NCBI GenBank assembly: GCA_049642065.1
Contig: JBAROK010000026.1
Location: 1,868-65,867 of the forward strand
Length of the DNA stretch: 64,000 bases
Direction: 5' to 3'
Source of the DNA: Candidatus Omnitrophota bacterium
GTDB lineage: Bacteria > Omnitrophota > Gorgyraeia > Tantalellales > Tantalellaceae
Below are positions 1 through 52,354 of this stretch, piece after piece. Position 1 is the stretch's first letter; every line of letters begins with the position of its first letter. The notes under the pieces were generated by a model that saw nothing but the letters and a program-made list of their open reading frames with translations, had not been told where the DNA came from and ran no database searches. The position numbers and the translations under genes were made by a program.

Positions 1-1
1 C

Positions 2-421
2 CCTGCTTTTGGTGCGGGCATGGAATGCGAATATGGATGCATAGGGTTCGGGGATTGCACGCCGGTATGTCCGTTTGATGCTATCCACATGGAAAACGGG
101 TTGCCTAAAGTGGACGTTGAGAAATGCACCGGATGCGGTAAATGTGTTGAAGCGTGTCCCCGGGACATTATCAGTCTGCAGGAGAAGAAATTCAAAAATT
201 TATTTTATGTTGCGTGCAGCACGCATGATGGGGCGTTACGTGTAAGGCAGATCTGTTCAGTTGGTTGTATAGCATGCGGTATATGCCAGAAACTTTCGCC
301 GGAAGGATACTTTGAGGTCGTCGATAGTCTTTCCTGTCCGAATTACGATAAACAAGGCAAGCAGGAAGAAGTGGAAAAACTGGTCCAAAAGTGTCCGACT
401 AAGGTTATCAAAAAAACATAG
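2..421 (+). CDS. 4Fe-4S ferredoxin-domain protein, C-terminal part (RnfB-like). 5' end runs off the window.
   Basis: The frame is open from position 2. It carries two Cys clusters typical of 4Fe-4S binding: CTGCGKCVEACP and CSVGCIACGICQ. Confidence 0.55.
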   Translation, partial: PAFGAGMECEYGCIGFGDCTPVCPFDAIHMENGLPKVDVEKCTGCGKCVEACPRDIISLQEKKFKNLFYVACSTHDGALRVRQICSVGCIACGICQKLSPEGYFEVVDSLSCPNYDKQGKQEEVEKLVQKCPTKVIKKT

Positions 422-428
422 GCTTAAT

Positions 429-1037
429 ATGAACATTGCAGTTTTTGTTTCAGGGAACGGAAGCAATCTTCAGGCTTTGATAGACGCGGAAGCCAGGGGG
501 GAGCTTGCCACTGGCAAGATAACCCTTATTGTATGCGACCAGCCCGAAGCTTTCGCTTTAAAAAGGGCGGAGAAAGCTGAGATAAAGACTTTTGTGCTTG
601 AAGCGGCCGGAGTCGCATCAAGAGAAGAATACGATAAAAAAGTCGCAAAAGAGCTGGAAAAAGAAAATATAGAGCTTATCGTACTTGCTGGTTTTATGCG
701 CATCTTAAGTGGTGACTTTGTCGATAAGTATCAAGGCCGCATCATGAACATACACCCCGCGCTCCTGCCGTCATTCAAGGGCACTCACGGGATACGTGAC
801 GCGGTAGAGTATGGGGTGAAAGTTACCGGAGTCACGGTTCACTTCGTGGATCAGGGGCTTGATTCCGGACCGGTGATCCTGCAAAAGTGCGTGCCTATTG
901 AAAAGGAAGATACGATGGATACTCTGGAAGAGAAGATCCATAGCGAAGAACATAAAATGTATCCTGAGGCTGTAAGGTTATTCACCGAGAACAGGCTTAG
1001 GATTAACGGAAGAAGAGTTGATATCCTGGACAAATAA
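429..1037 (+). CDS. purN: phosphoribosylglycinamide formyltransferase
   Basis: N-terminus MNIAVFVSGNGSNLQALID plus a HPALLPSFKG-type motif; about 200 aa, the GART length. ATG at 429 is preferred over the overlapping upstream ORF-track start at 312. Confidence 0.88.
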   Translation: MNIAVFVSGNGSNLQALIDAEARGELATGKITLIVCDQPEAFALKRAEKAEIKTFVLEAAGVASREEYDKKVAKELEKENIELIVLAGFMRILSGDFVDKYQGRIMNIHPALLPSFKGTHGIRDAVEYGVKVTGVTVHFVDQGLDSGPVILQKCVPIEKEDTMDTLEEKIHSEEHKMYPEAVRLFTENRLRINGRRVDILDK

Positions 1038-2595
<1,558 letters not shown>

Positions 2596-2596
<1 letters not shown>

Positions 2597-3096
2597 TGCG
2601 TCTTCTTGACCAAAAATTCCGTAGCAATAAGTTAAAGTATATCGGCCAGGCGCTGCTTGGCGGTTTGGCTGTTGGCATAGCGCTTCAAACCTTTGATGTT
2701 GTCAATAAGCCGGTCATCATAGCTTCTTTTGGAGCCAGTGCGTTCATAGCGTTCACGATGCCAAATCAACCGATATCCCGCCCGAGATGTCTTATTGGCG
2801 GGTATGCGGTAGGATTGGTCGTGGGGGTTCTGATGAACACCCTTACGTTCTTGCCCGCTGAAGCATACATATTACAGAAAGAAATCGAGATCACAGGAGG
2901 AGCAATAGCTGTGGCTTTAGCGATGTTCTTGATGTCTATAACCAATACTGAGCATGCACCTGCTACTGGAGTAGCTTTGGGTCTTGTGATAAACGAATGG
3001 AGTCTTCTTACGCTGGGTCAGATAATGGCTGGAATAGTTGTTATCTCTGCGATACAGAGATTGCTCAGGCCTTGGATGATGGATCTCATCGAGTAG
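2596..3096 (+). CDS. HPP-family integral membrane protein
   Basis: Four hydrophobic helices. SFGASAFIAFTMPNQPISRPR resembles the HPP-family core, with PNQP in place of HPP. Confidence 0.55.
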
Positions 3097-4054
3097 CGTG
3101 AGATCTGAGGAAATCGTTAACTTGCCTTAACCCGGTTAATCCCTGCACCGCGCCATGTCCCGAACATATCAGAGCTGAGACAGCTGATGCGAATTCCAGA
3201 TTTCTCTTCATGTTTTTTAGAAATGCGTCTTTTCCGTCTGCCGAGTACCTGTAGATAAGTCCTGCAGTAAAACCGTCACCAGCACCGATAGTATCTTTTA
3301 TGCGTACCTTGAAAGCAGGTTGTGTTATCTTTTTCTTTCCGTTCCAATAGAACGCGCCTTTTGTTCCTAGGGTAACGATTATATCTCCCTTAAGATGTTT
3401 CTTAATCTTTTCAAGCGCCTTATTAAGGGTTTTTGCTTGTGTGATGTGCAAAGCATCATCTTCGCTGAGTTTCACAAGGTCGACATACGCAAGTATCTTT
3501 TTTATCCTTTGCCGTGCTTTGGCTTTATTCGGTATTTTGCTCTCACGCCAGTTCGGATCATATGTAATAAAAACGTTTCTTTTTTTAGCCAGCCGCAACC
3601 GTTTCATTACCGATCGGAAAAACACATCGCTATACGAGAAGAAAGAACTAGCATGAAACACCACCGCGGATTTAAAGGGGGTTTCGCAAAGATGTTGAGC
3701 CTTGTCTTTATGGGGAACTTCTTTCCCGTAAAAGATGTAAGAAGAGTTGCCTTTGGAATCTATGCTTGCGAGCGCAAGAGGTGCGTTTATGTTCTTATCC
3801 TTTATGATATGGCGGGTATCTATGCCTTTATCCTTGAGTATGCTTATAAGAGACTGGCTAAGAGAATCGGTTCCCAGTCGAGACATTAGAGCAACAGGCA
3901 GGTCGAGTAGGGCAAGGATCATTGAAGTATTTGTAGCAGATCCTCCGGGATAGGCATGCAGGGTTAAGGGCTTACCCTTAGAGGACTTTTTTGCCACAAG
4001 GTCAAAAAGCGTCTCTCCGCAACATATGATTTTTTTAGGTATATTCTTGCCCAT
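3086..4054 (-). CDS. PfkB-family carbohydrate kinase (ribokinase/fructokinase-like)
   Basis: N-terminal GETLFD and C-terminal GAGDGFTAGLIY (the PfkB anion-hole/ATP motif); 322 aa. Confidence 0.8.
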   Translation of the reverse strand: MGKNIPKKIICCGETLFDLVAKKSSKGKPLTLHAYPGGSATNTSMILALLDLPVALMSRLGTDSLSQSLISILKDKGIDTRHIIKDKNINAPLALASIDSKGNSSYIFYGKEVPHKDKAQHLCETPFKSAVVFHASSFFSYSDVFFRSVMKRLRLAKKRNVFITYDPNWRESKIPNKAKARQRIKKILAYVDLVKLSEDDALHITQAKTLNKALEKIKKHLKGDIIVTLGTKGAFYWNGKKKITQPAFKVRIKDTIGAGDGFTAGLIYRYSADGKDAFLKNMKRNLEFASAVSALICSGHGAVQGLTGLRQVNDFLRSHATR

Positions 4055-4153
4055 GCAATATTAATAATAACATACAACCCCCGTATCAACAACCCGGGAC
4101 GTAAATATGTCTATATGGCCAAAAAGAGGGAAATGGCCCATACAAGCTTTTTA

Positions 4154-4183
4154 TTGACATAACTGGCTTTTTCATGGTATAAT
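4154..4183 (+). promoter_or_regulatory. sigma70-type promoter: TTGACA, 18-nt spacer, extended -10 TGgTATAAT, upstream of the giant ORF
   Basis: Hexamers read directly: TTGACA 4154-4159, TG 4175-4176, TATAAT 4178-4183. They point toward the ORF at 4289. Confidence 0.6.
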
Positions 4184-4288
4184 CTGGCTTCCACTGTATA
4201 TAAATGATAGGGGCTAAGTAGATAAATCAACATATAAGACTAAAGATAAATACTATATAGAAGTGGCGCGTAAATAATATAAAAGAAT

Positions 4289-4381
4289 ATGGGAAACTTA
4301 TTTATCAAGCACAAAACATGGGTCAGGATAGTGGCAATAGGCGTAGTGTGCCTATTTCTTCTCAATGATTTTGCGTTCGCT
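4289..4381 (+). other. N-terminal signal peptide / membrane anchor of the giant protein (MGNLFIKHKTWVRIVAIGVVCLFLLNDFAFA|VED)
   Basis: A positively charged n-region, a hydrophobic core, and an AFA|V signal-peptidase-I-like site. Confidence 0.55.
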
Positions 4382-7300
4382 GTTGAGGATGTGGCACTGA
4401 GGAAAAATGCGTATACCCTTTCTCCGGTTTCCCGCATAAGGCCGATTATCACAATTGAGGATAATGACGGTGAGCTTACCATAGTCGAGGATGAACAGGA
4501 AAGATCCAGACTGATCGAAGGTTTTCAGGAAGACGCCGGTTTCATATACCTGAACACTCTCATAGCCCAGGTGCTTCAAAAGTTCGGCTCTAGGATAAGC
4601 GCCGAAGGGTTGAAAGAACTTATCTCCAAACATCTTTCCCACGTAGATTTCACTAATTTTAAATGGCAAGAGATTTACAAAGAAGGAGACGTCTTCTGCC
4701 TTCCATATGCTAGAAAAGATGATGGCCGTACACAGATATTAAAATTCTACCTTCCGAAAGACAAAGAAGTACAGTTTCCCCACGAGGTTGCTTTAAAGTT
4801 TGATGACGGTTCAACTGCCATATTAGAAGACCCGATGGCCGAGCTTCCGGAGCATCTTAAGAAAATCCGTGAGACCGCTGCCAGTATCGCAGGGCAAGGA
4901 ATATTGTCTGGGATGGAGCTAGCGGAAAGAGGGATTAAGGGGAGCGCCTCAGCGGACGTAAAGGATCTTTCAAAAGACGGCAGGCTTTCATGCAATATGA
5001 TCTTGGTGGAGAAGTCTGAGAGGGACAGGGAAGCTTTAGACAGAACACTTTATGATAAATACCAGGGAAGTTTTCAGGTAGTTGCCGAAAGAAGAGAAGA
5101 CGTAGAAGACAGAATCTTGCGTTGGCCGCAGAAAGAACTTGAAAGAATTCTTGGAGAAAGAGCTTCTCATAATTTTATCGTAATAATCGATCCGGCAAAA
5201 CTTCATCCTGTCAGCAGAGAAGATGTTAAGAGAGTGCCCCAGGGTGCCTATCGTTCATATATTGAGATGCGTTTCAGTTACGGGATAAGACCTGAAGCTT
5301 TCAAAGCCGTGCTAATACCTAAAGAACTTGTTCCCATTATAGGGAATGTCTTTCCGCCACATGTAAAGATCATTGAAGTAAACGGCACAAGGCAAAAAGA
5401 GTTGGAAGTGCTGAGGCAGGAACCGATGATGGTAGGAGAGCGTCGTATAGGGGAAGAATCTAGAACGCGTATGGTTAACATGGAATTGCCGGACTATGAA
5501 ACTGCCCTTAGCGATTATTTAAGAGGCATGTCTAGAGGAGATAAACTCCTGACCCATATCGTAAGGCTTACTGCTCCGTCTGATGTCGAGCCTGAAAAAT
5601 CCGAAAACGAAAAGAAACATATACAAGGAGATAGTTCTGGGGATGATGGGAATCCTTCAGCTAAAGGTTCGGGTGGCCCCGTAACGTTAATGAGTGTAGC
5701 CTTACCTGCCCTTGCTACAGCATTTTTAAACACAGGCGAAGCGATAGATCCACTGATACCTGTGCTTTTTGGGATTGTTGCATTAGTCGCGATACCTATA
5801 GCGCTTTATCATGCATACAGATTTTGTATCGGGATAATGACAGTGGCCTTAGGGGTCAGAGAAAGAATAGCGACTGAGTTTGTTTTGGGAGGCGGCCTTA
5901 TCGCTGCCGGGATCCATTTGGGGTTCGGTCAAGTTGTACCGTCTTTTACGGAATATATAGCATCACCACTTTTATGTAGTGCCGGGGCGTGCCTCATAAC
6001 TTTTGGTGCGTACGAACTCGTAAAAGGTCTCATCATAAAATGGTCAAAAAAACAGGAAGACACACCGAACTTGGGTTCAGTCAACTCTTATGATCTAGCG
6101 TCTCACGAACTTCTTCGGGAGCATCTTAGGTATGCGGGGCAGTTACAGGCATGGGGACAGGAAGTAGAAGGTACAGACTTTTCGCAATATTATCACGACA
6201 GGCTAACTGAAGCCGGGATAACTCTACCAGATGATCTTAATCTGATCGTAATAAAACATAATCATGGGCCCCAAGGATCGCTAGAACAGAAATTTCTTTA
6301 TTTTGAGCCTATGGCTGAAAAATGGATATTCTCTCATTCTGGAACGCGCAAAGGAACCGGTAAATTCGTATATCTTACTGAGGAATCTTTATATCTTCTT
6401 ACGCATAACGTAAGCAGACATCCTGATTGCAAAAAGTTTCTTGAAGAACTTTTAATGGAAGAATACGAACACGCTACCCTTAAGCTGGAAGGCCGCTGGG
6501 CACAGGATTCACATAAGCTTGGCGATTCGCATCTTAAGGAATATGTGGAAAAAAACTTTAAGCTAAGACAACTCAGGTTAGCGGAACCCGTAGCGACAGC
6601 TATAGCCGATAACTGGACAATATCCGGAAGCATAATAGAACTATTTATTGATTTTCACCTTAAGGAAAAAGTTCCGCTAGATATTGAAGCGAGGTTTCAT
6701 AGAGAAGCAACTGAAGCAACAGACCTGGGGGGAATAGCCCGCATAATGGCTAGCAGCGCCAAGAGTCCGGACCACGCGAGAGAAAGAGTGCTTGAAGATG
6801 TACAAGTGATGGTTAGGTATAACTTGGCACAGGCGCGCAAGACAATAGATTTTATGGACGAAATGGCGGCAAAAGTTTCGCCTGAAATAAGAGAAGGACA
6901 AGAGTTTAAGAATCTCGTTGCTTTCTTTGTGGAGAATTTGAGTGACGCAGAGCTATACAAGGAAATCATAGACGATGAGCACATTCAATATGACGAGATA
7001 AATATAGGTTATCTGGCAAGGGATACGATCAGGTTCCTTAAGTCCCTGAAACAGTTCGAGCACACCGATATTGTTTTTAAGAATGATACGCCGGAGACGA
7101 CCATTTTGGGTGAGCCATATCTTATACGCTGGGAATTTATCGGTGCAGTGTTGAGGGAGGTTGATAATCTGCCAAGAGGAAGCGGCAAGATAGAAATCGG
7201 ATATCGGCAAGATTCATCAAGGATAGGGATCGAATTCATAGCGGAAAACCCGGCAGAACGCGCGAGGTGGATCGAAAGCGTAAAAGATAAATGCGCTGAT

Positions 7301-10300
7301 CTGAACGGTGCTTTTTATCGCGAGCTTAGGAAAGAATATAGAAGGGATGCGGGATCATGTTTTGATGCTTCTTACGTTCTTTCCCGAGTGCTGGCGGAAC
7401 ATCTTGGTCTTCCGATCGATGGTGATTCTCCCGATAGGATAGAGATAGAGGTGGGAGAGTACCCGTCTACGAGGCTTCTTAAGCCTTCTATTCACGCTTG
7501 GGTAATTGTGTACAGAAAAGGGGAGAGAACTCTTCTTATCGACCCGACCAGAGGGCAGTATGACAAGGGACAGTATAACAAAATATTTGTTGGAGAGTAT
7601 GCGAAGGCGATGGAAGAGCTGGAGCTAATAGGTCCGGATGAGCTGAGAGGAAAAGATGACTATAGGGATATAAACGATATCTTATTCAGCCATACGAGCA
7701 AGGAACCCCTGGACCTGATGTCAAGCCGCGTGTTGGAGAATATGGAGCTAGTCAGCATACTCAGAAACAGGTTGGATCTCAGTATAGGAAACGCAAGTCT
7801 TGGTCTGACCGAGCGGTTTGATTTTCTGGTGGGTGCTAATAAAGAGAAAATAATCAAGGAAACTGCTTTTACTGTTGCGGAGATTAAAAGAAGTACAGGC
7901 AAAAATACTAGAATGGGAGTACGCGTGGGCTACAAGGATGAAAGCACGGGTACGCAGTTTGACCTTGTCCTGGATATTGCTTATTACGGGGACGTCGAAA
8001 AAGTCGAAATAGTCATAAAAGTGTCAACCTCAGATATCTCAAAAGTGTTCCTCCTCCCGGAGCCCAATACTGTTGATATGGTCTTTCTTGGCGGAGGTAA
8101 AGCTTCGCTAAAACCAGCAGCGAAAGAGGCACATCCCGTTAGGCGAGGGGGAGAAAAAAACATACGAACTGACGAAGAAGCCAATGAGATCATACCAGGA
8201 ATTTTCAAAGCGCTAGGTATTGAATCGGAAAAACTGGAATGGCGCGAAGAGGATGGGTTGGTAGTAGCCGACATGCCGGTAGAGATGCTTAAAGAGCAGG
8301 AGGTAAAATTAGCGTTTGATCTTCCCGAGAAGGCACCTGTTGCAGGAGAGCTATTGATAGCGTGTCACGGAAGCTCACCGATGTTTTTATGCTTAAGAGG
8401 TAAAAAGCAGCTCGTGAAGATCATCAATTTAATGCCCTATTACGAGGATCTTCCCGAAGAAACCGCATTACGCATTATGGGCAGACTGGACGCTAAATTC
8501 CCAATAATGGAATTCGTGGGACACTCGCCATATTCATATGCGGTATTCAATGAGTGGGGAGGGTTGATCGAAATAACATCCGGATATCCGAACACAAAAA
8601 AATACCGTATTCCGATACATGTTACGCGCATACCCATACTCCCAGGGGTGTACGGAGGATCCCACTCATCGAGCGAGATAAGTGCCCGCGCTACAGTCGA
8701 ATATGCTAAACCAGGCATGAAAGTGCTTGTTGTCGGAACCGGCAAAGGTCTTGAGGCTCGAATAGCGGCGCTGCGGGGTGCTACTGTAGATGCCGTGGAC
8801 ATAAGAGAACTTGCAGTCGCGAACACTAAAATAACCTGTTATCAAGCGGGCGTGTCGGATAAAGTGAACGCATTCTGCAACGATCTTTTTAACGGGCTCG
8901 GGAAATATGATCTTATTATCTTTAACATGCCGCATGCCTCCGATGAACCGCTGGTTCACGATCTAGTTACAAGTAAAGACCGTAATACCAGTGATTTCGG
9001 AGGAGCATTGCTTGACAGGGTAGCCGATGAGATAGCAAAACACATGGCGCTGGGAGGTAAAGCCGTTCTTATCAATAGTGAATCTTTTATTACGGAAAAG
9101 AAACTGAAAGAAAGAACAGGGTTTAGCGTTAGATCGGACTTCTTTGATGTTGCCGGAGGATCAAAAGCGTACATTATAGAGAGGCCCGATTCAGATAGGG
9201 AAAAATCTGCCGGGATTTTACGTCTTCCTTCGCCGCGCGGGCATGTTCCCGATATACAGGGAAACATTGAAAGGGCTAAAAGGAATATGTGCCAGCCTTT
9301 AGAGCAGGACAATTCTACTATAGTTAGTGAAAAAGATATCGACTGGACGGCGATAAACGCGTACATGCGCCAGAAGAAACTGAAGGTATACCCCAAAAAA
9401 GACAGGCCTGTCGTACATGTAGTGGACATACAAGGCGAGAACGGAAAAGACCTTTTCGGGTTTCCGCTTGTACCGGGCCATGAGGAGTTTGAGGGAATTG
9501 TACCGGTCATATCGTACAGGTCCTTAAAGGACGACCGGTTGCACGTGTTCATGACAGCCGGCCTTTATGACGACTATCTTGAAGTATCCCACATGAGAGC
9601 GACTAGAAGCGCGAAAACGCTTCGTATTGTCCGGCTCGCCGAAATACTTGATCACGAGATCTTTGAACATTCCGAGGAAGCTCTTGCTGAGCCCGAAGAA
9701 GAAAGGCACCATCTTGCTGCGCTCCGCGCCGGGCATTTTATCCCGCGTGGCCAGAAAATAAGCGCGTTCCACAAATGGGTCTTGGACAATATGGCGCTTA
9801 CAGAAAACGGACGCGAACATATAATGCTTATGCTTGACGAAGAGAGGCCAGAGCCGGAGAGGTCCAGCCAGCGTAAATACGAAAGGAATTTTTATAATTA
9901 CGCCAAGAGCGTGTTACCAAGGGAAAAATATTCAGGCAAAGTGCAGCGTGCCGCTCATCATCTTTTGAGAGTATACGGGCACGGAGATGTACACGCTTTT
10001 GAAGAATTGTGCGTAAAAGTCGGAGTAGACCCCAAAGCGCTTAGTAAAGCGATCGAGCAAGAGGAGAAAAAACACGTGTTGAACGCCGTTGAAGGGTTTA
10101 AGCCGGATATAGTTATTACGGAGACGAGTGAGACGAATGTGGAGATAGATAACACAAAAGCCATTGTAAGAAAGCTGCTCAAGAACCAATACGCTGATTT
10201 TGTATGGAACGCGCTGATGAAAGCCAAACACGGGCCGGAATGTATGACGGTGCTGTTGGAGGTACTTGCTAAACACGGTAAAGATGTCTTCTGCAGCGAG

Positions 10301-13300
10301 AAGATGGAGCCTGTTATAGAGTATGCGTTCAGGGAACTAAAACGGTACGATAAAGAGAAATACGAGAGAGTAAGCGATAAGGCCGGTACAGTACTTGAGG
10401 TAGTTTCAGATTATATGGATCAGCTGGCGATACTTGCCAGTTATCTTCTTGCCCAGGAAAGGTTGGGAGGGCTTATAGCGGACTTTACGATAATCGACGG
10501 CCAGATATACCAAGAAAAGGTGACCCCTCTTACAGTTTATCTTCAGCAGCTTATTAGCGGAACGGGCCCCTTCGAAGACCTTAAAGATAAATCTTACGAG
10601 AACAAAGTAAGGATAGGGTGGGACGTTCTGGAAAAATATATCGAATGTATTCAAGAGATAGCTAAAAGGGGAGCAGTAATATGTAACGTTAAGTTAACTA
10701 ATTTTGGTATAAGAGAGAACGGTGAAGTGGTTCTTTTTGACCTGGGAAGGTCGTCTTTGGGGTGGCATGACAGAGGAGAGATAAACCAGGAGTTCGCGCT
10801 TACCCTGCTTGGTACGAAAATAGCAATGGATGCCAGGCGACTTGAGAACTTGAATGCCGAAGGTGTTTTTGAAGAAACGGGCATACGTCATGATTTTGGA
10901 GATGATGAGCAAGCCCAAAAACTTCAAACGGAACTAGCGCGGATATGGACAGAACTAATCTCCGCAAGACCCATTGCGGAGGGTGACGAGGAGGCCGTGA
11001 AGATACTGGATGGCAGGGAGTTTGTTGAGAGGGTCAAGACCATTCTCCCAAAAACACCGGAAGAAGCTGAACCCGAATACAGGAGGATAACGTTCATCCC
11101 AAACGAAATAGCGGGGGAAGAGATCTTACAGGTAATAATGAAGGAGATAGATGACAGTAAAACAGAAACAACGTCCTCGCTTCCACAAGGATCCATACAT
11201 GGCGTTTTCACATATCTATGTGAAAATAATGTTATAAATCCTGAAACTAGTTTACCGGGCGATCTGATAGCTAATGGTCTTGACCGCCAGTTTGGAACGA
11301 TAAAGTATGACCTGAGAGCTTTATTTTACCATTTGCATCTTATTGAAAAAGCGGATGTCAAGGAGACCGGCAAGAGCGCCAGATACTACGTACCGGAAAG
11401 GGTAAAGAAGAAAGCCGCCAGGATATTACCTGTTCTTACCCGTTTTGTTGGAGAAGACCGTGTGCCCAAAGTAACACTTCTTGATAAAGTTTACGAAGAA
11501 GAGATAGCCCCCATTCTGCAAGCCCTGCCCCAAACAAGATGCAGACCCAAGCCCATTGAAGGAAAAGCGCCGATAATCCTTATCCTGGGATGGCCCGGAT
11601 CAGGTAAGACTACCCTTGGAAGATCTTTGAGCCAGGAGCTGGGAGTGCCTCATATCTCAATAGGTACATTGATAGCGCAAGAAAGGGAACGCAACCCTGA
11701 TTTTGATCCGGCGCTTCTTAACAGTAACGACTACGTCTATGGTGAGCTTCTTGAGAATGCGCTTGGGGAGTGCGATCTTACAGGAGGTGTTATTATTGAC
11801 AATTCTCCACGTACACCTGATGCGATAAACGCATTAAAAGAAATACTCGAAGCCAAAGGTCTCAAGCTCGGGGCGATAATAGAGCTTACTATTAGCAGGA
11901 GAACTGCCGGTTCACGTATGGTAAAAAGGTCCAGAGAAGAGGGAAGAAACTGGGACAGGAGCAGGAAAGTAAGGCGCAAAAAAATGGACATGTACCGGAA
12001 GATGGCGATGCCGCAGCTTGATCAGTGGCGCAAGAAAGGACTTGTATGTTCGCTGGACGCGGAAGTGGAACCGTGGATCCTGGAAGCCAGAGCGCTTGGA
12101 AGGTTGAATGAGAAAGGCGTGGTTTCGCTGCATCCGCAAAGTGACGAACAGACACATAAGCCACTCACTCCGATTAAAGAAGAGGGCTCCATAGAGTTAG
12201 CTGGCAAGAAATTCCGTTTAGCGACTATAGCAATAAGTGATACCTATAAATCACTTGAAGTGTTTGATGAAGAGACCGGCAAGCGTGTGGGTTTCTTTTA
12301 CGCTATGGTGGGAGACGAAACTAGTCCTCATTGTGCTGATGTTTGCGGAATAAGGGGAATACACCTCAAGCCCCAATACAGGGGGCTAGGATTATCAGCG
12401 AAGATGATGGAAATATTTTTCCAGAAGTTTAGAGAAGTTAATCTGCTTCTTGATGAGATAATGAACCCCATGCTAATTCACATGGCAAAAGAACATTTTG
12501 GGTTTTTGCCTGTTAACCCGGTCCCGGAGAACAGGGTGTACATAAACCTTAAGCAGGGAAGATCCAGCAAGCCAAAGATATGGATACCTGAAGATTTTCT
12601 GAGGCGTTCATACAGTATGGGTCCACCGGAAACTATGCGCAAAGAGTTCGAAGTGCTTCAGGAAGAGCCGGACAATCTAGACGATTTTGAAAAGGTATAT
12701 TTCCGTACTGCGTACAAACGGGTTTACCATCCAGGACTTAGGCTGGAAGGTGTAGATGCTGTTATTACTGATTTTGATGGCGTGGATAGAGACCACAGCA
12801 TGGATGTCGTGAGCGAAGAAACCATTGCGGCAAAGAGAGGACTATCAAGAAGAGGTGTTCATAACATAACGATTACAGGACTCGAACAGGGCAAGCTTTT
12901 CAGGCGTTTCGGCGGGGCAAAAAGAGCCGGGAAGATAAGTACCCGAGATGATTATATCGCTCTTAGCTGTTCCGGGGCTGTTGCTAACCAGGTAACAAAA
13001 GATGGCCAGATAAAACCGCTTGCAGGGTTTAAGGGTGTTTCGTTGGGAGACAGAAAGACAAAACAGGATATTGCAAGGATAGCTAGAAAGGCTTTACTTA
13101 TAGCTTGCCGAGAAGCGGGCATACCACAGGAAGCTGCCGATAATGTCGAAGAATCGATCAGGGAAGAGCAGGTATCTCTTATTGCGAGGGGCGATGAAAG
13201 AATTAGTGCGATACGTTACAGAGTAGCGGAGATTATCCGTAAAGAGCTAAAAAAACAAGGCTTTCCAAAGAATATTGAAGTTTCAGCTTCATTCGTGGCA

Positions 13301-14776
13301 GTGGACATTACCAGTACGTCCAAGGGCAAGGCCGCGATCCAGATGATTAAGCTTTTGAAGCTTACGAAAGTAGTACTAATAGGTGATTCCGTTGGTACTG
13401 AAGAGAAGCCCGGCAATGATAGGAGCTTACTTGTTTTGACTAAAAAAGATATCCGGGCCGCCGGGATAGACTGGGAAGTTGAGCTCATACCTGTTTATGT
13501 AGGACGAGAGGAGAATTATACTCTTCCGGAGAACGTTATTATCTCTCCTCAGGGCGAAAGAGAAATCGATCCTGCACTCAACCTGTACAACGCTGTTATA
13601 AGGGCACAGGACGAGGTAGCGCTACGCGAACTAGCAAAAGAAAAGACCATGAGAGTATGGGGATCGCTTGATAAGAAGAGATTGACCAAATGGTTACAGG
13701 AATGGAAGAAGATATATAAGATCCAAGGTAAGATAGATATAAAACGCCTTTTCAAGGACAGGGTCGGCAGGACACTGTCTTTCAGTATCGGTGAGCACAA
13801 TTGTACGGTTACGTTCGATGTAACAAAAAGCATGAATACCGGCAAAGTGCGGCTGACGATAATGGGCATGCATCTTGACGGAAAACTCAGGGAAAAGCGG
13901 CTTATGTCCATGTTGACCCTGTATCTTATTCAGCCTTATAAGTGCGATGAAGTTTATCACGACAGGATGAACGAGAAATTCGGAGAAAAATTCTTCAAAG
14001 GCTTGAAAAAGCTTGGTATTTACAGCGATATTACATATTCTGAAAAACAGAAAGGTAAATACAGGAACGGGCTGGGGATAATAGATAAAAAGCGCGTCAA
14101 AGAAATCACACATAACACAGAAGCTCTTAAGAAGTTTATCTCAAAAGACGAGGATAGCCGAGGCAAGGAAGGTTTATCTAATGAGGTAAAGGGCAGTCAG
14201 GAGGCAGCTGGCAGATTCGTTGACGAGATAATTATAAGAGCTTTTGAAGCGCAAAAAGAAGGGCAGGATATTATTATTGGTGTAGATACCAGCTGGATAC
14301 CTGATATGCAGGGAGTGCAGCTAGTGTTAAATGAACTATCCCGCATTTCAAGACGTAAAGGGTTTAAGAATATCCATTTTATAAGAGGCAGGGGAGCCGA
14401 ACTGGCGGAGCTTATTTCAAAAAGAGTAGAGAAGACAGGAACCGCACTTTCAAACGTTATAGTGCTTGCTGAAGAACATGTTTTGCAGGCGGATCAGTTT
14501 AATGGTCTGAGAAGTACTGAAGATGAAGAAAAAGCTTTTCTGGTGGGGGTTGATCCAAAGCATCTTACCGACAAAAGTTATACTAGAATACTTGAGATGC
14601 TGACCTTGGCGGTTAAGCTCGCTTTCAGCGAGCAGGAAAAAGCTGAAATTTTTGGAGTATCGGCTACCCGTATTGGTCCAAGAACGTGGATATTTATTCC
14701 CGAGGCGTGTCCGATGGACTTTGAGGAAAGAAAAGCTATTTATAAAGCCCAGATGCAGGCGCTAATCGCAGCCTAA
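4289..14776 (+). CDS. giant multidomain membrane-anchored protein (3,495 aa); motifs are detailed in the sub-features
   Basis: Single uninterrupted frame of 10,488 nt, with a promoter upstream and a hairpin terminator downstream. Multiple independent catalytic motifs occur in the same frame. All ORF-track antisense ORFs across this span are short. Confidence 0.85.
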   Translation: MGNLFIKHKTWVRIVAIGVVCLFLLNDFAFAVEDVALRKNAYTLSPVSRIRPIITIEDNDGELTIVEDEQERSRLIEGFQEDAGFIYLNTLIAQVLQKFGSRISAEGLKELISKHLSHVDFTNFKWQEIYKEGDVFCLPYARKDDGRTQILKFYLPKDKEVQFPHEVALKFDDGSTAILEDPMAELPEHLKKIRETAASIAGQGILSGMELAERGIKGSASADVKDLSKDGRLSCNMILVEKSERDREALDRTLYDKYQGSFQVVAERREDVEDRILRWPQKELERILGERASHNFIVIIDPAKLHPVSREDVKRVPQGAYRSYIEMRFSYGIRPEAFKAVLIPKELVPIIGNVFPPHVKIIEVNGTRQKELEVLRQEPMMVGERRIGEESRTRMVNMELPDYETALSDYLRGMSRGDKLLTHIVRLTAPSDVEPEKSENEKKHIQGDSSGDDGNPSAKGSGGPVTLMSVALPALATAFLNTGEAIDPLIPVLFGIVALVAIPIALYHAYRFCIGIMTVALGVRERIATEFVLGGGLIAAGIHLGFGQVVPSFTEYIASPLLCSAGACLITFGAYELVKGLIIKWSKKQEDTPNLGSVNSYDLASHELLREHLRYAGQLQAWGQEVEGTDFSQYYHDRLTEAGITLPDDLNLIVIKHNHGPQGSLEQKFLYFEPMAEKWIFSHSGTRKGTGKFVYLTEESLYLLTHNVSRHPDCKKFLEELLMEEYEHATLKLEGRWAQDSHKLGDSHLKEYVEKNFKLRQLRLAEPVATAIADNWTISGSIIELFIDFHLKEKVPLDIEARFHREATEATDLGGIARIMASSAKSPDHARERVLEDVQVMVRYNLAQARKTIDFMDEMAAKVSPEIREGQEFKNLVAFFVENLSDAELYKEIIDDEHIQYDEINIGYLARDTIRFLKSLKQFEHTDIVFKNDTPETTILGEPYLIRWEFIGAVLREVDNLPRGSGKIEIGYRQDSSRIGIEFIAENPAERARWIESVKDKCADLNGAFYRELRKEYRRDAGSCFDASYVLSRVLAEHLGLPIDGDSPDRIEIEVGEYPSTRLLKPSIHAWVIVYRKGERTLLIDPTRGQYDKGQYNKIFVGEYAKAMEELELIGPDELRGKDDYRDINDILFSHTSKEPLDLMSSRVLENMELVSILRNRLDLSIGNASLGLTERFDFLVGANKEKIIKETAFTVAEIKRSTGKNTRMGVRVGYKDESTGTQFDLVLDIAYYGDVEKVEIVIKVSTSDISKVFLLPEPNTVDMVFLGGGKASLKPAAKEAHPVRRGGEKNIRTDEEANEIIPGIFKALGIESEKLEWREEDGLVVADMPVEMLKEQEVKLAFDLPEKAPVAGELLIACHGSSPMFLCLRGKKQLVKIINLMPYYEDLPEETALRIMGRLDAKFPIMEFVGHSPYSYAVFNEWGGLIEITSGYPNTKKYRIPIHVTRIPILPGVYGGSHSSSEISARATVEYAKPGMKVLVVGTGKGLEARIAALRGATVDAVDIRELAVANTKITCYQAGVSDKVNAFCNDLFNGLGKYDLIIFNMPHASDEPLVHDLVTSKDRNTSDFGGALLDRVADEIAKHMALGGKAVLINSESFITEKKLKERTGFSVRSDFFDVAGGSKAYIIERPDSDREKSAGILRLPSPRGHVPDIQGNIERAKRNMCQPLEQDNSTIVSEKDIDWTAINAYMRQKKLKVYPKKDRPVVHVVDIQGENGKDLFGFPLVPGHEEFEGIVPVISYRSLKDDRLHVFMTAGLYDDYLEVSHMRATRSAKTLRIVRLAEILDHEIFEHSEEALAEPEEERHHLAALRAGHFIPRGQKISAFHKWVLDNMALTENGREHIMLMLDEERPEPERSSQRKYERNFYNYAKSVLPREKYSGKVQRAAHHLLRVYGHGDVHAFEELCVKVGVDPKALSKAIEQEEKKHVLNAVEGFKPDIVITETSETNVEIDNTKAIVRKLLKNQYADFVWNALMKAKHGPECMTVLLEVLAKHGKDVFCSEKMEPVIEYAFRELKRYDKEKYERVSDKAGTVLEVVSDYMDQLAILASYLLAQERLGGLIADFTIIDGQIYQEKVTPLTVYLQQLISGTGPFEDLKDKSYENKVRIGWDVLEKYIECIQEIAKRGAVICNVKLTNFGIRENGEVVLFDLGRSSLGWHDRGEINQEFALTLLGTKIAMDARRLENLNAEGVFEETGIRHDFGDDEQAQKLQTELARIWTELISARPIAEGDEEAVKILDGREFVERVKTILPKTPEEAEPEYRRITFIPNEIAGEEILQVIMKEIDDSKTETTSSLPQGSIHGVFTYLCENNVINPETSLPGDLIANGLDRQFGTIKYDLRALFYHLHLIEKADVKETGKSARYYVPERVKKKAARILPVLTRFVGEDRVPKVTLLDKVYEEEIAPILQALPQTRCRPKPIEGKAPIILILGWPGSGKTTLGRSLSQELGVPHISIGTLIAQERERNPDFDPALLNSNDYVYGELLENALGECDLTGGVIIDNSPRTPDAINALKEILEAKGLKLGAIIELTISRRTAGSRMVKRSREEGRNWDRSRKVRRKKMDMYRKMAMPQLDQWRKKGLVCSLDAEVEPWILEARALGRLNEKGVVSLHPQSDEQTHKPLTPIKEEGSIELAGKKFRLATIAISDTYKSLEVFDEETGKRVGFFYAMVGDETSPHCADVCGIRGIHLKPQYRGLGLSAKMMEIFFQKFREVNLLLDEIMNPMLIHMAKEHFGFLPVNPVPENRVYINLKQGRSSKPKIWIPEDFLRRSYSMGPPETMRKEFEVLQEEPDNLDDFEKVYFRTAYKRVYHPGLRLEGVDAVITDFDGVDRDHSMDVVSEETIAAKRGLSRRGVHNITITGLEQGKLFRRFGGAKRAGKISTRDDYIALSCSGAVANQVTKDGQIKPLAGFKGVSLGDRKTKQDIARIARKALLIACREAGIPQEAADNVEESIREEQVSLIARGDERISAIRYRVAEIIRKELKKQGFPKNIEVSASFVAVDITSTSKGKAAIQMIKLLKLTKVVLIGDSVGTEEKPGNDRSLLVLTKKDIRAAGIDWEVELIPVYVGREENYTLPENVIISPQGEREIDPALNLYNAVIRAQDEVALRELAKEKTMRVWGSLDKKRLTKWLQEWKKIYKIQGKIDIKRLFKDRVGRTLSFSIGEHNCTVTFDVTKSMNTGKVRLTIMGMHLDGKLREKRLMSMLTLYLIQPYKCDEVYHDRMNEKFGEKFFKGLKKLGIYSDITYSEKQKGKYRNGLGIIDKKRVKEITHNTEALKKFISKDEDSRGKEGLSNEVKGSQEAAGRFVDEIIIRAFEAQKEGQDIIIGVDTSWIPDMQGVQLVLNELSRISRRKGFKNIHFIRGRGAELAELISKRVEKTGTALSNVIVLAEEHVLQADQFNGLRSTEDEEKAFLVGVDPKHLTDKSYTRILEMLTLAVKLAFSEQEKAEIFGVSATRIGPRTWIFIPEACPMDFEERKAIYKAQMQALIAA
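5675..6050 (+). other. internal block of 4-5 predicted transmembrane helices (aa ~463-587) in the giant protein
   Basis: Consecutive hydrophobic stretches: LMSVALPALATAFL, LIPVLFGIVALVAIPIALY, FVLGGGLIAAGIHLGFG, IASPLLCSAGACLITFGAY. Confidence 0.6.
7300..7600 (+). other. transglutaminase-like cysteine-protease core (Cys1024-His1069-Asp1085) in the giant protein
   Basis: GSCFDASYVLSRVLAEHLGLP (Cys codon 7358-7360), SIHAWVIVY (His codon 7493-7495) and LLIDPTRG (Asp codon 7541-7543). This matches the C...HAW...DPT pattern of the transglutaminase-like superfamily. Confidence 0.6.
8700..9120 (+). other. class I SAM-dependent methyltransferase-like domain with an N-M-P-H motif IV (amino-group MTase type) in the giant protein
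   Basis: Motif I VLVVGTGKG at 8723-8749; acidic beta-2 end AVDI; motif IV DLIIFNMPH with NMPH at 8924-8935, where N6-adenine and protein Gln/Lys methyltransferases have (D/N)PP(Y/F). Confidence 0.55.
10660..10760 (+). other. protein-kinase-like catalytic-loop/DFG-like signature (possibly degenerate) in the giant protein
   Basis: VICNVKLTNFG aligns to HRDLKPxN with Asn in the Asp position. It is followed 10 aa later by VVLFDLGRS (DLG 10739-10747). Confidence 0.35.
11560..11960 (+). other. adenylate-kinase-like (NMP kinase) P-loop domain in the giant protein
   Basis: Walker A ILILGWPGSGKTT (11588-11614); GVIIDNSPRTPDAINAL resembles the adenylate kinase GFLLDGFPRT segment; ISRRTAGSRMVKR resembles the LID arginines. 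Confidence 0.6.
12200..12520 (+). other. GNAT-type N-acetyltransferase-like domain in the giant protein
   Basis: VGFFYAMVGDE...VCGIRGIHLKPQYRGLGLSAKMMEIF matches GNAT motif A (R/Q-x-x-G-x-G/A). Confidence 0.5.
12746..13470 (+). other. HAD-superfamily phosphatase-like domain (Cof/SPP type) in the giant protein
   Basis: Motif I VITDFDGVD (Asp 12770, Asp 12776), a conserved Lys region SKGKAAIQ, and motif IV VVLIGDSVGTEEKPGND (Asp 13385, Asp 13418). Confidence 0.5.
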
Positions 14777-14805
14777 TTTCGATCCAGAACATGCAACAAT
14801 TGACA

Positions 14806-14840
14806 AAAAGCCCGGGTAATTTAATAACCGGGCTTTTTAT
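14806..14840. terminator. bidirectional rho-independent terminator for the giant ORF (+) and tRNA-Met (-)
   Basis: Stem agcccgg / ccgggct with a 12-nt loop. A T-run follows on the + strand and an A-run precedes it, which reads as a T-run for the - strand. Confidence 0.7.
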
Positions 14841-14845
14841 ATATT

Positions 14846-14920
14846 TGGTTGCGGGGGACGGAATCGAACCGCCGACCTTGAGGTTATGAGCCTCACGAGC
14901 TACCCCTGCTCCACCCCGCG
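14846..14920 (-). tRNA. tRNA-Met (anticodon CAT), initiator-like
   Basis: The reverse complement reads CGCGGGGTGGAGCAGGGGTAGCTCGTGAGGCTCATAACCTCAAGGTCGGCGGTTCGATTCCGTCCCCCGCAACCA. It has a cloverleaf, a CAT anticodon, three G-C pairs in the anticodon stem, an unpaired C1 as in fMet tRNAs, and an encoded CCA. Confidence 0.9.
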
Positions 14921-15050
14921 TCAATAACTATTTAGAGTGAGTGATTATAGCAAATAAAACTAACACAGGCAAGGAGTTTTTGACAAAAACACAAGAGCCT
15001 ATCGGTACAGCGGTTTAATACCTATATATTGTGTAGTTACCCCATAATAA

Positions 15051-15079
15051 TTGACAGTAAGTATTATATATGTTATAAA
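15051..15079 (+). promoter_or_regulatory. sigma70-like promoter (TTGACA, 17-nt spacer, TATAAA) upstream of purB
   Basis: Hexamers read directly, 55 nt upstream of the purB ATG. Confidence 0.45.
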
Positions 15080-15133
15080 AAATATCTCTGATTCAAGTAA
15101 TCACTAATTTTCCCTAAAATCAGGAGAGAAAAT

Positions 15134-16426: not shown

Positions 16427-16430
16427 ACTT

Positions 16431-17435: not shown

Positions 17436-17454
17436 GTGGTGGAGGATAAATTCG

Positions 17455-18732: not shown

Positions 18733-18753
18733 CTTGTAAAAGAGAGGAAATAC

Positions 18754-20158: not shown

Positions 20159-20179
20159 AAGCACGAAAGGAAACATGAA

Positions 20180-21451: not shown

Positions 21452-21452
21452 A

Positions 21453-22384: not shown

Positions 22385-22400
22385 TTTATTGCTCATACAT

Positions 22401-22432
22401 AAAAAAGGCCGGGATTTTCCCGGCCTTTTTTA
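22401..22432. terminator. bidirectional rho-independent terminator between nrdR (+) and the convergent PpiD-like gene (-)
   Basis: An A-run, stem ggccggg / cccggcc with loop atttt, then a T-run. Confidence 0.7.
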
Positions 22433-52348: not shown

Positions 52349-52354
52349 TTTTCC

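Follow-up and report, generated by a model that had tools for sequence, protein, structure and literature searches.

In which compartment does a long chain of cytoplasmic-type enzymes act when its N-terminus looks like an export signal? The question is raised by a gene in the window, i.e. the whole 64-kb stretch of DNA analysed here.

4289..14776, + strand: whole gene, 3,495 aa; NCBI MGB2601467.1, 'MAG: nucleoside monophosphate kinase [Candidatus Omnitrophota bacterium]'

The sequence-only reading of this locus had described a signal-peptide-like leader ending in AFA|V, a block of four transmembrane (TM) helices about 430 aa past it, and ATP- and SAM-dependent domains further downstream. It had reasoned that, with a cleaved signal and four helices, the ~2,900-aa enzymatic region would lie outside the cytoplasm, which would make sense only for a delivered effector or toxin; as a way out it named an anchor that stays uncleaved, or five helices. 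All three features are present, and the step from a leader plus an even helix count to enzymes outside is correct as a textbook reading. We consider the extracytoplasmic placement probably wrong, and helix counting leaves the conflict in place because the conflict sits in the leader, which opens the protein together with a short motif and a globular domain.

4289..4384, + strand: leader, aa 1-32, with n-region, hydrophobic run, N26-D27 and F-A-F-A; sequence-conserved across the family
4415..4444, + strand: TLSPxSRFxP motif, aa 43-52, after a variable linker of 0-12 aa behind the leader
4448..4843, + strand: globular alpha/beta N-cap domain, aa 54-185

The n-region of the leader (aa 1-13, MGNLFIKHKTWVR) is basic, with three K/R, and is followed by a hydrophobic run of 12 residues (aa 14-25, IVAIGVVCLFLL), by N26-D27 and by F-A-F-A, with helix breakers at -6/-5 and the small residues A29 and A31 at -3/-1 of V32. 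Like Sec/SPase I signals, it thus has the n-region, the h-region (7-15 residues with a polar end) and the -3/-1 residues that define the class. The same anatomy holds family-wide, with the consensus ..K/R-AIAIGVVCLFLLND-I-[SA]-[FY]-A. K or R is found at alignment position 13, just ahead of the hydrophobic helix, in 93/97 sequences, and the N-terminal tail carries a mean of 3.45 K/R vs 1.38 in the following 15 residues, being the richer side in 87/93. F23 is kept in 79/102 sequences; the N26-D27 site has N in 73/102 and D, N or E in 81/102; S, A, V or T occupies -3 in 88/102 and A, S, G or T occupies -1 in 94/102, with an aromatic residue at -2. As a sequence pattern, this i/i+2 spacing of small residues is better explained by an extended SPase substrate than by helix packing. 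The leader is N-terminal in 100 copies and internal in one, and in the motif that follows L44 is conserved in 101/105 sequences and S48 in 90/105. Unlike ordinary signal peptides, which are not conserved in sequence, this leader is conserved and precedes a conserved motif, and its passengers are of cytoplasmic type. It is with the passenger that the likeness to a Sec/SPase I signal fails, both here and family-wide, since the domains identified by sequence would need ATP, SAM, acetyl-CoA or DNA. The N-cap has no family in Pfam or NCBIfam and no significant fold match in the PDB. An AF2 helix within it (aa 77-102) was considered as a hidden second TM helix; this was rejected in favour of an ordinary amphipathic helix, as the median dG17 is 7.9 with just 2% of members below 3.5. 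Had it been a TM helix, it would have reconciled the leader with cytoplasmic cargo.

Homologous-protein searches with aa 1-650 and with the N-cap alignment gave no matches; the relatives discussed here (P-numbered) were all drawn from an exhaustive search of cluster representatives, ~100 of which contain the leader and the N-terminal domain. A second conserved domain, the C-cap (~210 aa), whose loci were searched with a degenerate DNA pattern of its motif, accompanies them: 70 of the 72 C-cap carriers have the leader, and the C-cap is the extreme C-terminus in 59/68 leader-bearing proteins with 1,000 aa or more. These large proteins with common N- and C-terminal domains apparently form an undescribed family, the range of which appears to be Omnitrophota and a few related MAGs only. 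The family is multi-copy, with several paralogs per genome and members of up to 7,094 aa. In our protein, the following segments lie behind the N-cap, in addition to the hydrophobic block listed further below.

4856..5608, + strand: module aa 190-440, found again within other large proteins and as small proteins of its own, the latter with an N-terminal hydrophobic helix plus an xL[SA]P motif
6050..6598, + strand: recurrent module aa 588-770
7286..7738, + strand: recurrent module aa ~1000-1150, with a Cys...His...Asp pattern seen by eye only and no family match
8642..9130, + strand: SAM-dependent methyltransferase, HemK/PrmA-like, aa 1452-1614 (NCBIfam E 1.7e-14)
10568..10744, + strand: weak protein-kinase-like match, aa 2094-2152, far below the Pfam cut-offs
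11576..12064, + strand: NMP/adenylate-kinase-like P-loop domain, aa 2430-2592 (Pfam ADK 1e-12, NCBIfam 5e-22)
12263..12505, + strand: GNAT-like domain, aa 2659-2739 (E 0.011, under the Pfam cut-off), homologous to better-scoring GNATs of relatives
14141..14773, + strand: alpha/beta C-cap, aa ~3285-3495, IIIGxDTSWIP ... RGxG ... SNxIxL ... FIPxAxP

Neither cap is covered by a Pfam or NCBIfam model, nor are the modules 190-440, 588-770 and 1000-1150. The predicted structure of the C-cap (pLDDT 89.7) has a Rossmann-like three-layer alpha/beta fold, and by this model the domain is not a beta-sandwich or beta-barrel as in C-terminal secretion domains. The cargo between the caps varies widely. P0085 and P0106 contain Hpt, HisKA, HATPase_c, REC, PAS and GAF domains, some members are hybrid histidine kinases with as many as 8 PAS domains, and further domains in the census are Sigma70_r2, HTH_24, PTS_EIIA_2, Radical_SAM, Fic, Pkinase, HAD, methyltransferases, DnaJ, GNAT and chorismatase. 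Neither typical extracellular nor toxin domains were present in this census, which contained no nucleases, deaminases, ADP-ribosyltransferases, lipases or pore-formers. Furthermore, 41-49 of 70 full-length members (about two thirds) have no hydrophobic segment beyond the leader, yet their cargo likewise comprises histidine-kinase cores, REC, sigma-70 region 2, radical SAM, PTS-EIIA, Fic, GNAT and methyltransferase domains. Neither escape offered by the sequence-only reading, an anchor left uncleaved or five helices, would therefore remove the conflict, as these members are helix-free after the same leader.

The hydrophobic block of our protein spans aa 465-583.

5681..5731, + strand: helix A, aa 465-481, first helix of hairpin 1; marginal (dG17 +3.4, dG19 +4.6), Ala/Leu/Pro-rich
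5753..5809, + strand: helix B, aa 489-507, strong (dG19 +0.4), followed by a conserved YHAxR motif
5822..5857, + strand: short stretch aa 512-523, flanked by R511 and R524/R526, read as interfacial in a cytoplasmic loop
5879..5935, + strand: helix D, aa 531-549, first helix of hairpin 2; dG17 +2.9, Gly-rich
5957..6037, + strand: helix E, aa 557-583, second helix of hairpin 2; dG17 +2.75, conserved PLLCSAGAC motif
6038..6052, + strand: basic flank KWSKK, aa 584-588, directly after the block

Helices were called from hydropathy on the Hessa 2005 and Kyte-Doolittle scales. The caller is crude; in controls it called one helix wrongly in 7,484 aa of soluble proteins from the window and found 6/6 helices of MsbA, 2/2 of FtsH and 8/12 of an MFS protein. 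Because of this low false-call rate, four segments within 120 aa are not due to chance, and no later hydrophobic segment exists, the remaining ~2,900 aa having no further 19-residue window with dG below 3. The stretch aa 512-523 was considered as a fifth helix and rejected: it has 12 hydrophobic residues between R511 and R524, and 9-10 in two homologs, too few to span a membrane.

Flanking charges speak against the C-out topology of the sequence-only reading, in which all seven flanking K/R would be outside and none inside. The inside:outside tally is 7:0 for four TM helices with N-in/C-in, 6:1 for three and 5:2 for five, and all these alternatives, which obey the positive-inside rule, put the enzymatic region in the cytoplasm. 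Controls from the same window (PpiD-like, FtsH and MsbA-like proteins) obey the rule. In 27 hairpins of leader-bearing relatives, the mean K/R number is 3.07 in the first flank, 0.85 in the loop and 2.22 in the second flank, and the loop has fewer K/R than the flanks in 25/27 hairpins and a lower K/R density in 22/27. A test of the first helix after the leader was clear at a permissive setting (20 vs 5) and weak at strict settings (11-12 vs 7-8), and with the crude caller 12 of the 70 members had a non-zero even number of helices and 12 an odd number.

Of these topologies, only that with three TM helices satisfies every textbook rule for this single protein. The leader would be a real signal peptide or an N-in anchor, residues 33-488 (the N-cap, the 190-440 module and helix A) would be periplasmic, helix B would cross back, D and E would form a hairpin, and the enzymes would be cytoplasmic. 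The N-in leader, the 6:1 charge ratio and the marginal hydrophobicity of helix A agree with such a layout, which resembles that of classical sensor kinases (TM1, periplasmic domain, TM2), and the small stand-alone homologs of module 190-440 likewise start with a hydrophobic helix. What makes this topology unlikely in our view is its fit to the relatives. P0005 is a syntenic ortholog with the same neighbours, purN-eno-ftsB-HPP-pfkB, and an enolase 86% identical to that of our locus. Between its N modules and its block lies a GNAT (Acetyltransf_1, E 1.9e-15, R-x-x-G-x-G motif intact), beyond the block lie GNAT and methyltransferase domains, and it has an extra, third hairpin composed of a weak and a strong helix. 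Owing to this hairpin and GNAT layout, the helix number shifts by two and acetyl-CoA enzymes stand on both sides of the block. The relative P0008 also has a real GNAT ahead of the block, and in both proteins this would-be periplasmic segment would thus hold an acetyl-CoA enzyme. Furthermore, many relatives pair a strong helix with a weak partner like helix A, a sign that the hairpins are genuine, and the N-cap would have to switch sides between paralogs, because helix-free members force N-cap and cargo into one compartment. P0085 and P0106 are a case in point: like sensor histidine kinases they have an N-terminal helix, a domain of ~150 aa and PAS/HisKA/HATPase_c, but unlike these kinases, in which a periplasmic sensor is followed by TM2 and a cytoplasmic core, they lack TM2.

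Taken at face value, a signal peptide plus four helices means that the enzymes act outside, in the periplasm or a surface coat, on nucleotides and cofactors of lysed prey, e.g. as an ecto-adenylate kinase feeding nucleotide uptake. ATP/ADP translocases are reported from some Omnitrophota (PMC10066038), and published analyses of giant proteins from the phylum predict mostly extracellular domains and discuss extracellular pre-processing of substrates (10.1101/2023.11.21.568195). The authors of that giant-gene study themselves call such localisations probably unreliable. The charge tally of 0 inside and 7 outside, the K/R-rich hairpin flanks throughout the family, and radical SAM, sigma-70 region 2, HTH, phosphorelay and J-domains, for which an extracellular function is implausible, make enzymatic work outside the cytoplasmic membrane very improbable.

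Genuine export followed by delivery breaks no sequence rule and has to be weighed more seriously. In this scenario the leader would be a cleaved Sec signal, the motif and caps would be trafficking modules, and the cargo would act inside a host or prey cell, in its cytoplasm; the hairpins would enter the target membrane from its cytoplasmic face, with their K/R-rich flanks facing the target cytoplasm, and the effector idea would extend to the whole family. The leader has all features of a signal peptide, including its restriction to the N-terminus, and constant ends, cargo that varies greatly, multiple paralogs in one genome and fast turnover suit an effector family, as do the Fic and protein-kinase domains; syntenic orthologs of the large protein are 37-57% identical, vs 86% for enolase, and differ in their domain sets, i.e. 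turn over fast in a modular way. Some known effectors look alike in part. Chlamydial Inc proteins have a bilobed hydrophobic hairpin, and the PEXEL, RxLR and CRN effectors of parasites combine a signal peptide, a short conserved targeting motif and variable cargo. By analogy, the one-sided hairpin flanks, the motif within ~30 residues of the signal peptide, the variable cargo and the multi-copy family in host-dependent organisms may be compared to both groups; unlike them, our family has both ends conserved, regulatory or metabolic cargo and no known secretion route. Omnitrophota have been reported as host-dependent or predatory nanobacteria (PMC10066038), and type II/IV secretion-like loci are reported to adjoin giant genes (10.1101/2023.11.21.568195).

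The genes around our locus do not support delivery. Upstream are purN, eno, ftsB-like, HPP and pfkB genes, and downstream purB, purM, purD, purE, LMW-PTP and glyA; the remaining genes of the window are housekeeping genes or serve general envelope biogenesis. A neighbourhood check, which the sequence-only reading had proposed, found no dedicated secretion system within the 64 kb, and neither a type II/IV secretion-like locus upstream, nor pilZ or sugar-import genes downstream, nor a second leader-bearing ORF in the window. Near the gene and near P0005 alike, there is no secretion system, immunity gene or chaperone. In this the protein differs from self-translocating and polymorphic toxins, as does the family in its cargo, which is mostly regulatory or metabolic (hybrid histidine kinases, REC, sigma-70 region 2, HTH, PTS-EIIA, radical SAM, chorismatase), with none of the toxin-type domains sought in the census. 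A possible counterpart of the autoprocessing protease of such toxins would be the Cys...His...Asp-like module at aa ~1000-1150, for which Pfam gave no match. The idea of a delivered effector or toxin finds no support in the window. Member size also speaks against export, since 7,094 aa exceeds all known self-translocating toxins, and the modelled C-cap matches no known secretion-domain fold. We consider export and delivery unlikely, and slightly more doubtful the specific version in which leader, TLSPxSRFxP and caps would be a dedicated host-delivery signal that sends a polymorphic arsenal of enzymes and regulators into the host, anchored there from inside by the hairpins.

The reading we prefer, to which we give about an even chance, is that these are membrane-tethered cytoplasmic polyenzymes whose leader leaves most of the chain unexported. 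The ~2,900-aa enzymatic region would reside in the producer's own cytoplasm, and the helices would form two hairpins, A+B and D+E, entering the inner membrane from the cytoplasmic side, with the short acidic loops TGEAID and PSFTEY outward and the basic residues K459, R511, R524, R526 and K584/K587/K588 inward. A fixed N-cap (leader, TLSPxSRFxP and alpha/beta domain) and a fixed ~210-aa C-cap enclose freely exchangeable cargo of cytoplasmic type, which optional hairpins would pin to the membrane. The leader is most likely an N-terminal membrane-targeting or tethering element that does not take most of the protein through the membrane. We infer the cytoplasmic compartment because the K/R tally is 7:0 vs 0:7 for C-out and flanks are K/R-rich in the 27 hairpins of relatives, because the P0005 GNATs flank the block while the helix number changes by two, because helix-free members carry phosphorelay, sigma and radical SAM cargo and no extracellular or toxin domain, and because the C-cap fold is unlike C-terminal secretion domains and the syntenic neighbourhood is housekeeping, with no secretion system in 64 kb.

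Against a cytoplasmic placement stands, above all, the leader itself, which in form is a textbook Sec/SPase I signal. By the standard rules such a leader inserts N-in/C-out and translocates what follows, and the N-cap offers no second membrane crossing. DeepTMHMM signal-peptide calls on ~48% of long Omnitrophota proteins, given in a recent preprint (10.64898/2026.06.07.730766), also count against it. There is a precedent on the other side: the N-terminal helices of PglC and LpxM are predicted to be transmembrane yet are re-entrant, with basic residues ahead and a polar break inside, and the domain after the helix stays cytoplasmic (Entova et al. 2018, PMC6133551). Our leader, too, is a hydrophobic N-terminal helix with a conserved polar break and with basic residues conserved ahead of it, and by analogy with such monotopic proteins it could possibly be a re-entrant helix-break-helix at N26-D27. 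It differs in having Asn-Asp at the break in place of Ser-Pro or Ile-Pro and a second arm of only ~5 hydrophobic residues, and the protein has no phosphoglycosyl-transferase domain. The absence of the PglC Ser-Pro motif and of any conserved Pro argues against re-entrance, as does AF2, which gives the leader as a single continuous, straight helix (residues 3-39, pLDDT above 90), unlike PglC.

The same localisation puzzle has been noted for the giant proteins of Omnitrophota ('Archaeovorins', with a 'Module 1' of methyltransferase, HATPase, GNAT and HAD; West-Roberts et al. 2023, 10.1101/2023.11.21.568195; 2026 preprint 10.64898/2026.06.07.730766). In these two studies, most enzyme domains are predicted to be extracellular, which is the basis of a predation or cell-surface story, and the extracellular predictions are termed unreliable. 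The giants share with our protein the phylum, a mix of cytoplasmic-type enzymes on one chain, and a predicted signal peptide and/or TM helices. Our protein, at 3,495 aa, falls short of the 10,000 aa or more that these studies set as thresholds (above 10,000-30,000 aa for the Archaeovorin type), and its gene, unlike theirs, has neither a type II secretion-like locus nor pilZ genes beside it. The searchable text of both sources contains no mention of the conserved leader, TLSPxSRFxP, the N-cap or the C-cap. Our gene is a small, tractable instance of the giant-protein contradiction, and it locates the contradiction in a conserved N-terminal leader of ~100 protein clusters rather than in helix counting. 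If this leader does not export, it would be a new kind of membrane-targeting signal, misread by current predictors, and the localisation calls for many long Omnitrophota proteins may need revision; if it does export, these bacteria would deliver an unprecedented range of cytoplasmic machinery to other cells.

The idea that giant members are concatenations of capped units, each with its own leader, was rejected, as just one internal leader-like segment was seen (in P0077); internal N-cap copies are without the helix. The P-loop domain at aa 2430-2592 scores 78.6 bits with the housekeeping Adk equivalog model NF001381, vs a cut-off of 187, and judged from its sequence it is an NMP-kinase-like domain only.

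The giant-protein ORF (4289..14776, + strand) encodes 3,495 aa, with the feature of interest within its first 587 codons, and an identical protein is deposited in GenBank as MGB2601467.1 ('MAG: nucleoside monophosphate kinase [Candidatus Omnitrophota bacterium]', contig JBAROM010000079.1). The sequence-only reading had described a signal-peptide-like leader and then a block of four helices, and a residue and hydropathy check found this anatomy to be accurate.

Features of the giant protein (4289..14776, + strand)
aa 1-13: leader n-region, MGNLFIKHKTWVR, basic
aa 14-25: leader hydrophobic run, IVAIGVVCLFLL
Leader end: N26-D27 and F-A-F-A, directly ahead of V32; positions -3 and -1 are alanines
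aa 465-481: helix A, marginal
aa 489-507: helix B, the only strongly hydrophobic segment of the block
aa 531-549: helix D, marginal
aa 557-583: helix E, marginal
aa 1452-1614: SAM methyltransferase, downstream of the block
aa 2430-2592: NMP/adenylate-kinase-like P-loop domain, downstream of the block
aa 2659-2739: GNAT, weak, downstream of the block

Helices A, D, and E have a summed Hessa-scale dG of about +2.8 to +3.4 per 17 residues, and a whole-protein hydropathy scan found no further segment strong enough beyond the leader and the block. The helix caller, a simple one that overlooks marginal helices, called 1 helix falsely across 7,484 aa of soluble window proteins and recovered 6/6 helices of MsbA, 2/2 of FtsH, and 8/12 of the MFS protein. 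A candidate fifth helix at aa 512-523 was rejected as too short for a bilayer: the arginines on either side enclose only 12 hydrophobic residues, and the two closest homologs have 9-10 there.

K+R inside : outside in the loops and 15-residue flanks of the block
Four helices, N-in/C-in: 7 : 0 (K459; R511, R524, R526; K584, K587, K588)
Leader and three helices, A not spanning: 6 : 1
Five helices: 5 : 2
Leader and four helices, C-terminus out (sequence-only reading): 0 : 7

The loops TGEAID and PSFTEY, which would face outward in the four-helix N-in/C-in model, are acidic. Since control membrane proteins of the window follow the positive-inside rule normally, KWSKKQED..., right after the block, is marked cytoplasmic whatever the leader does. 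This flank and the tally argue against the C-terminus-out topology, in which a cleaved signal and four helices would place the enzymes outside the cytoplasm. Truly extracellular enzymes, at odds with the charge pattern and with biochemistry, are highly improbable. For the giant protein taken alone, the sole model obeying every rule is the classical one, with three spanning helices behind an N-terminal region in the periplasm; we nevertheless regard it as unlikely, as it is contradicted by family members without other helices and by a GNAT before the block in the ortholog P0005.

P0005 (3,510 aa, GCA_964565425.1) lies behind the same purN-eno-ftsB-HPP-pfkB genes as the giant protein. Enolase is 86% identical between the two loci, whereas the giant proteins share only 37-57% identity and differ partly in cargo, the domains between the conserved ends. 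In P0005 the N-terminal modules are followed, ahead of the block, by a genuine GNAT (Acetyltransf_1 in Pfam, E 1.9e-15) that retains an intact acetyl-CoA loop, R-x-x-G-x-G, and GNAT and methyltransferase domains are also present downstream of the block; acetyl-CoA-dependent domains are thus predicted on both sides of it. Past the shared block, P0005 has an extra unit: the weak helix GLFPMFVMGNSGLAGSF is joined through the acidic loop ESLDLTDAE to a strong helix, with NPRARASRLVKKF coming next. This unit is a predicted third hairpin with the same plan as A+B, and the helix number shifts by twos between the two proteins. Helix steps of two, together with acetyl-CoA domains on either side, argue for an even helix count and the same compartment on both sides.

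An exhaustive search of 1.84 billion cluster representatives with aa 1-1200 gave 187 matches, and 104 of the best 150 carry the same leader at their own N-terminus, although these 50%-identity representatives are phylogenetically non-independent. The N-cap consensus comprises a basic tail, K/R, AIAIGVVCLFLL, N-D, and I-[SA]-[FY]-A in the leader, followed by a 0-12-residue linker, TLSPxSRFxP, and an alpha/beta domain to about residue 185. Ordinary signal peptides are conserved far less than this leader and motif (F23 in 79/102, N26 in 73/102, L44 in 101/105, and S48 in 90/105), and the leader is a family element rather than a generic signal peptide. AlphaFold2 on the N-cap alignment confidently models residues 3-39 as a helix, which a floppy linker connects to an alpha/beta domain that is well predicted (mean pLDDT 81.5) and for which there is no significant PDB match and no model in Pfam or NCBIfam. 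A leader-only profile found 100 N-terminal copies and 1 internal copy (P0077, aa 254-286); the latter, IVVKCSILMIVCFLFVNGIACAFNPALKP, has a K-rich stretch before it, and P0077 thereby has two consecutive segments, both N-in-looking. In some giant relatives the globular part of the N-cap recurs internally with no adjacent hydrophobic helix: P0013 (aa 2462-2557, 3665-3749, 4402-4505, and others), P0037 (485-611), and P0092 (222-323). Stand-alone relatives of the aa 190-440 module (P0072, P0076, P0096, P0144, P0148; 340-680 aa) begin with a hydrophobic helix and then xL[SA]P but lack the N-cap domain, and therefore the helix-plus-LSP signal may be broader than the two-capped family.

The other cap, first seen as a conserved C-terminal block in the alignment of 25 relatives, spans aa ~3285-3495 of the giant protein (IIIGVDTSWIP ... 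RGRG ... SNVIVL ... FIPEACP). Searching the retrieved proteins iteratively turned up this C-cap in 72 of them, 70 of which have the leader, and this co-occurrence is an independent observation because the retrieval query did not contain the C-cap. Of the 68 proteins that carry the leader and reach 1,000 aa or more, 59 end exactly with it; the other 9, some of which may be truncated at contig ends, lack it. Its AF2 model is very confident (pLDDT 89.7, pTM 0.84), and the fold is three-layer alpha/beta and Rossmann-like; similarity to SIS, flavodoxin-like, and HAD folds was below significance, and no sequence relative was found in PDB. Family members range from 663 to 7,094 aa, and those named are all from Candidatus Omnitrophota, several per MAG. 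A degenerate DNA pattern of the C-cap motif gave 21 loci among 185,579 species genomes, labelled Omnitrophota (14), 'uncultured Planctomycetia' MAGs (6), and Methanocellaceae (1); true C-caps are encoded at 20 of them, and the Methanocellaceae locus was rejected as a chance match. The five 'uncultured Planctomycetia bacterium' loci checked (L008, L011, L012, L016, L019) have genuine C-caps, and two have N-caps too, which reflects either imprecise labels or a family extending beyond Omnitrophota within the PVC group. At another locus, L013 (Candidatus Tantalella remota, JAVCCB010000080.1), a 1,413-aa ORF with the N-cap and a separate 898-aa ORF with the C-cap may represent one family member broken by a split or a frameshift, or else two partial genes.

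In 41-49 of the 70 two-capped full-length representatives, the leader is the sole hydrophobic segment, and the cargo of such leader-only members is uniformly cytoplasmic in type. For example, P0085 contains Hpt, two HisKA-HATPase_c cores, two receiver domains, many PAS, and one GAF, and P0106 contains PAS-GAF-HisKA-HATPase_c and then receiver domains. Other members carry Sigma70_r2, HTH_24, PTS_EIIA_2, Radical_SAM, Fic, Pkinase, HAD, methyltransferases, histidine phosphatase, GDPD, alpha-amylase, chorismatase, and DnaJ, and in P0008, as in P0005, a GNAT immediately follows the N-terminal modules. Toxin-type domains were absent from this cargo census. Where hydrophobic segments are present, they are mostly hairpins, and 27 of these have mean K/R values of 3.07 (upstream flank), 0.85 (loop), and 2.22 (downstream flank). 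By count the flanks exceed the loop in 25/27, and by density in 22/27. With a permissive caller, 20 of 25 informative cases have more K/R ahead of the first post-leader helix than behind it; strict settings give 11-12 vs 7-8. The bulk of the family proteins is thus marked as cytoplasmic-face.

The leader, with 3.45 K/R before its helix vs 1.38 after and a richer N side in 87/93, is marked N-in/C-out just as clearly. It also shows the complete SPase I signature, in which the small residues have the i/i+2 spacing that characterises extended cleavage sites. No hidden return crossing was found within the N-cap, and therefore one of two rules must be broken family-wide: either a textbook-looking signal leaves its passenger untranslocated, or cytoplasmic-type machinery is exported. 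Delivery into host cells would break no sequence rule, and it suits the constant-ends/variable-cargo design, the rapid modular turnover, and the host-dependent lifestyle reported for Omnitrophota; however, the cargo is regulatory and metabolic, members reach 7 kaa, and no associated machinery was found, which makes such delivery doubtful. Housekeeping genes flank the giant gene on both sides (5' purN, enolase, DivIC/FtsB-like, HPP membrane protein, and PfkB kinase; 3' purB, purM, purD, purE, LMW phosphatase, and glyA). Elsewhere the window encodes HisG, transketolase, FtsH, GlmU-like, Prs, DnaB, BamA, LpxC, LpxB, an MsbA-like ABC exporter, a SurA/PpiD-like chaperone, RtcB, and others; its envelope genes indicate a diderm organism, and general envelope machinery is present with no dedicated secretion system among the 64-kb window genes. 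Cargo census, hairpin charges, ortholog, housekeeping synteny, and the absence of toxin domains outweigh the form of the leader, and we favor a cytoplasmic location. That the enzymes of the giant protein are cytoplasmic, as the three-helix layout would also imply, is probable; that the protein is a cytoplasmic polyenzyme tethered to the membrane by hairpins, with a leader that does not export the bulk, is held with moderate confidence.

A precedent is provided by PglC and LpxM, in which an N-terminal hydrophobic helix predicted to be transmembrane is re-entrant and the enzyme stays cytoplasmic, which needs conserved basic residues and a polar helix break (PMC6133551). Conserved K/R13 and N26-D27 of the family leader may be the counterparts of these. 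Unlike PglC, the leader has no Ser-Pro motif and is a straight helix in AF2; PglC-type re-entrance is thus offered as a lead, with no membership claimed.

The localisation puzzle in general is already on record. In the searched text of West-Roberts et al. (10.1101/2023.11.21.568195), most domains of Omnitrophota giant proteins are predicted extracellular, with some localisations 'highly unlikely', and in that of a 2026 preprint (10.64898/2026.06.07.730766), DeepTMHMM classes of 39% SP+TM and 9% SP-only are taken as secreted; neither searched text mentions either cap. What appears to be new here is that the predicted signal peptide is a single conserved, family-specific leader, that a conserved motif and an N-terminal domain accompany it, along with a C-terminal domain that is obligatory, that other membrane segments are missing from most members, and that the secreted reading is contradicted by the hairpin charge pattern.

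In a JGI/IMG copy, the giant gene is called as two proteins, of 2,947 aa and a 493-aa C-terminal piece from VAVDITS, which points to a frameshift, stop, or assembly difference near aa 2947-3002 (window 13130..13300) in that assembly. A 341-aa ORF with no Pfam match at E <= 1e-5 (29962..30987) lies between FtsH and the transketolase C-terminal subunit, separating the two transketolase halves. A 902-aa Aas-like ORF (53821..56529), with an MFS transporter directly 5' of it, has AMP-binding, phosphopantetheine-binding, and acyltransferase domains, and a 551-aa ORF (61508..63163) is an unusual fusion of a weak Glyco_hydro_100 (invertase-like) match and a PTS HPr domain. Nearly all genes of window 1..64000 are on the + strand. 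Every 2-kb bin has a positive GC skew (0.04-0.21), and the cumulative skew climbs steadily; the window resembles one replichore arm whose genes are strongly biased in strand.
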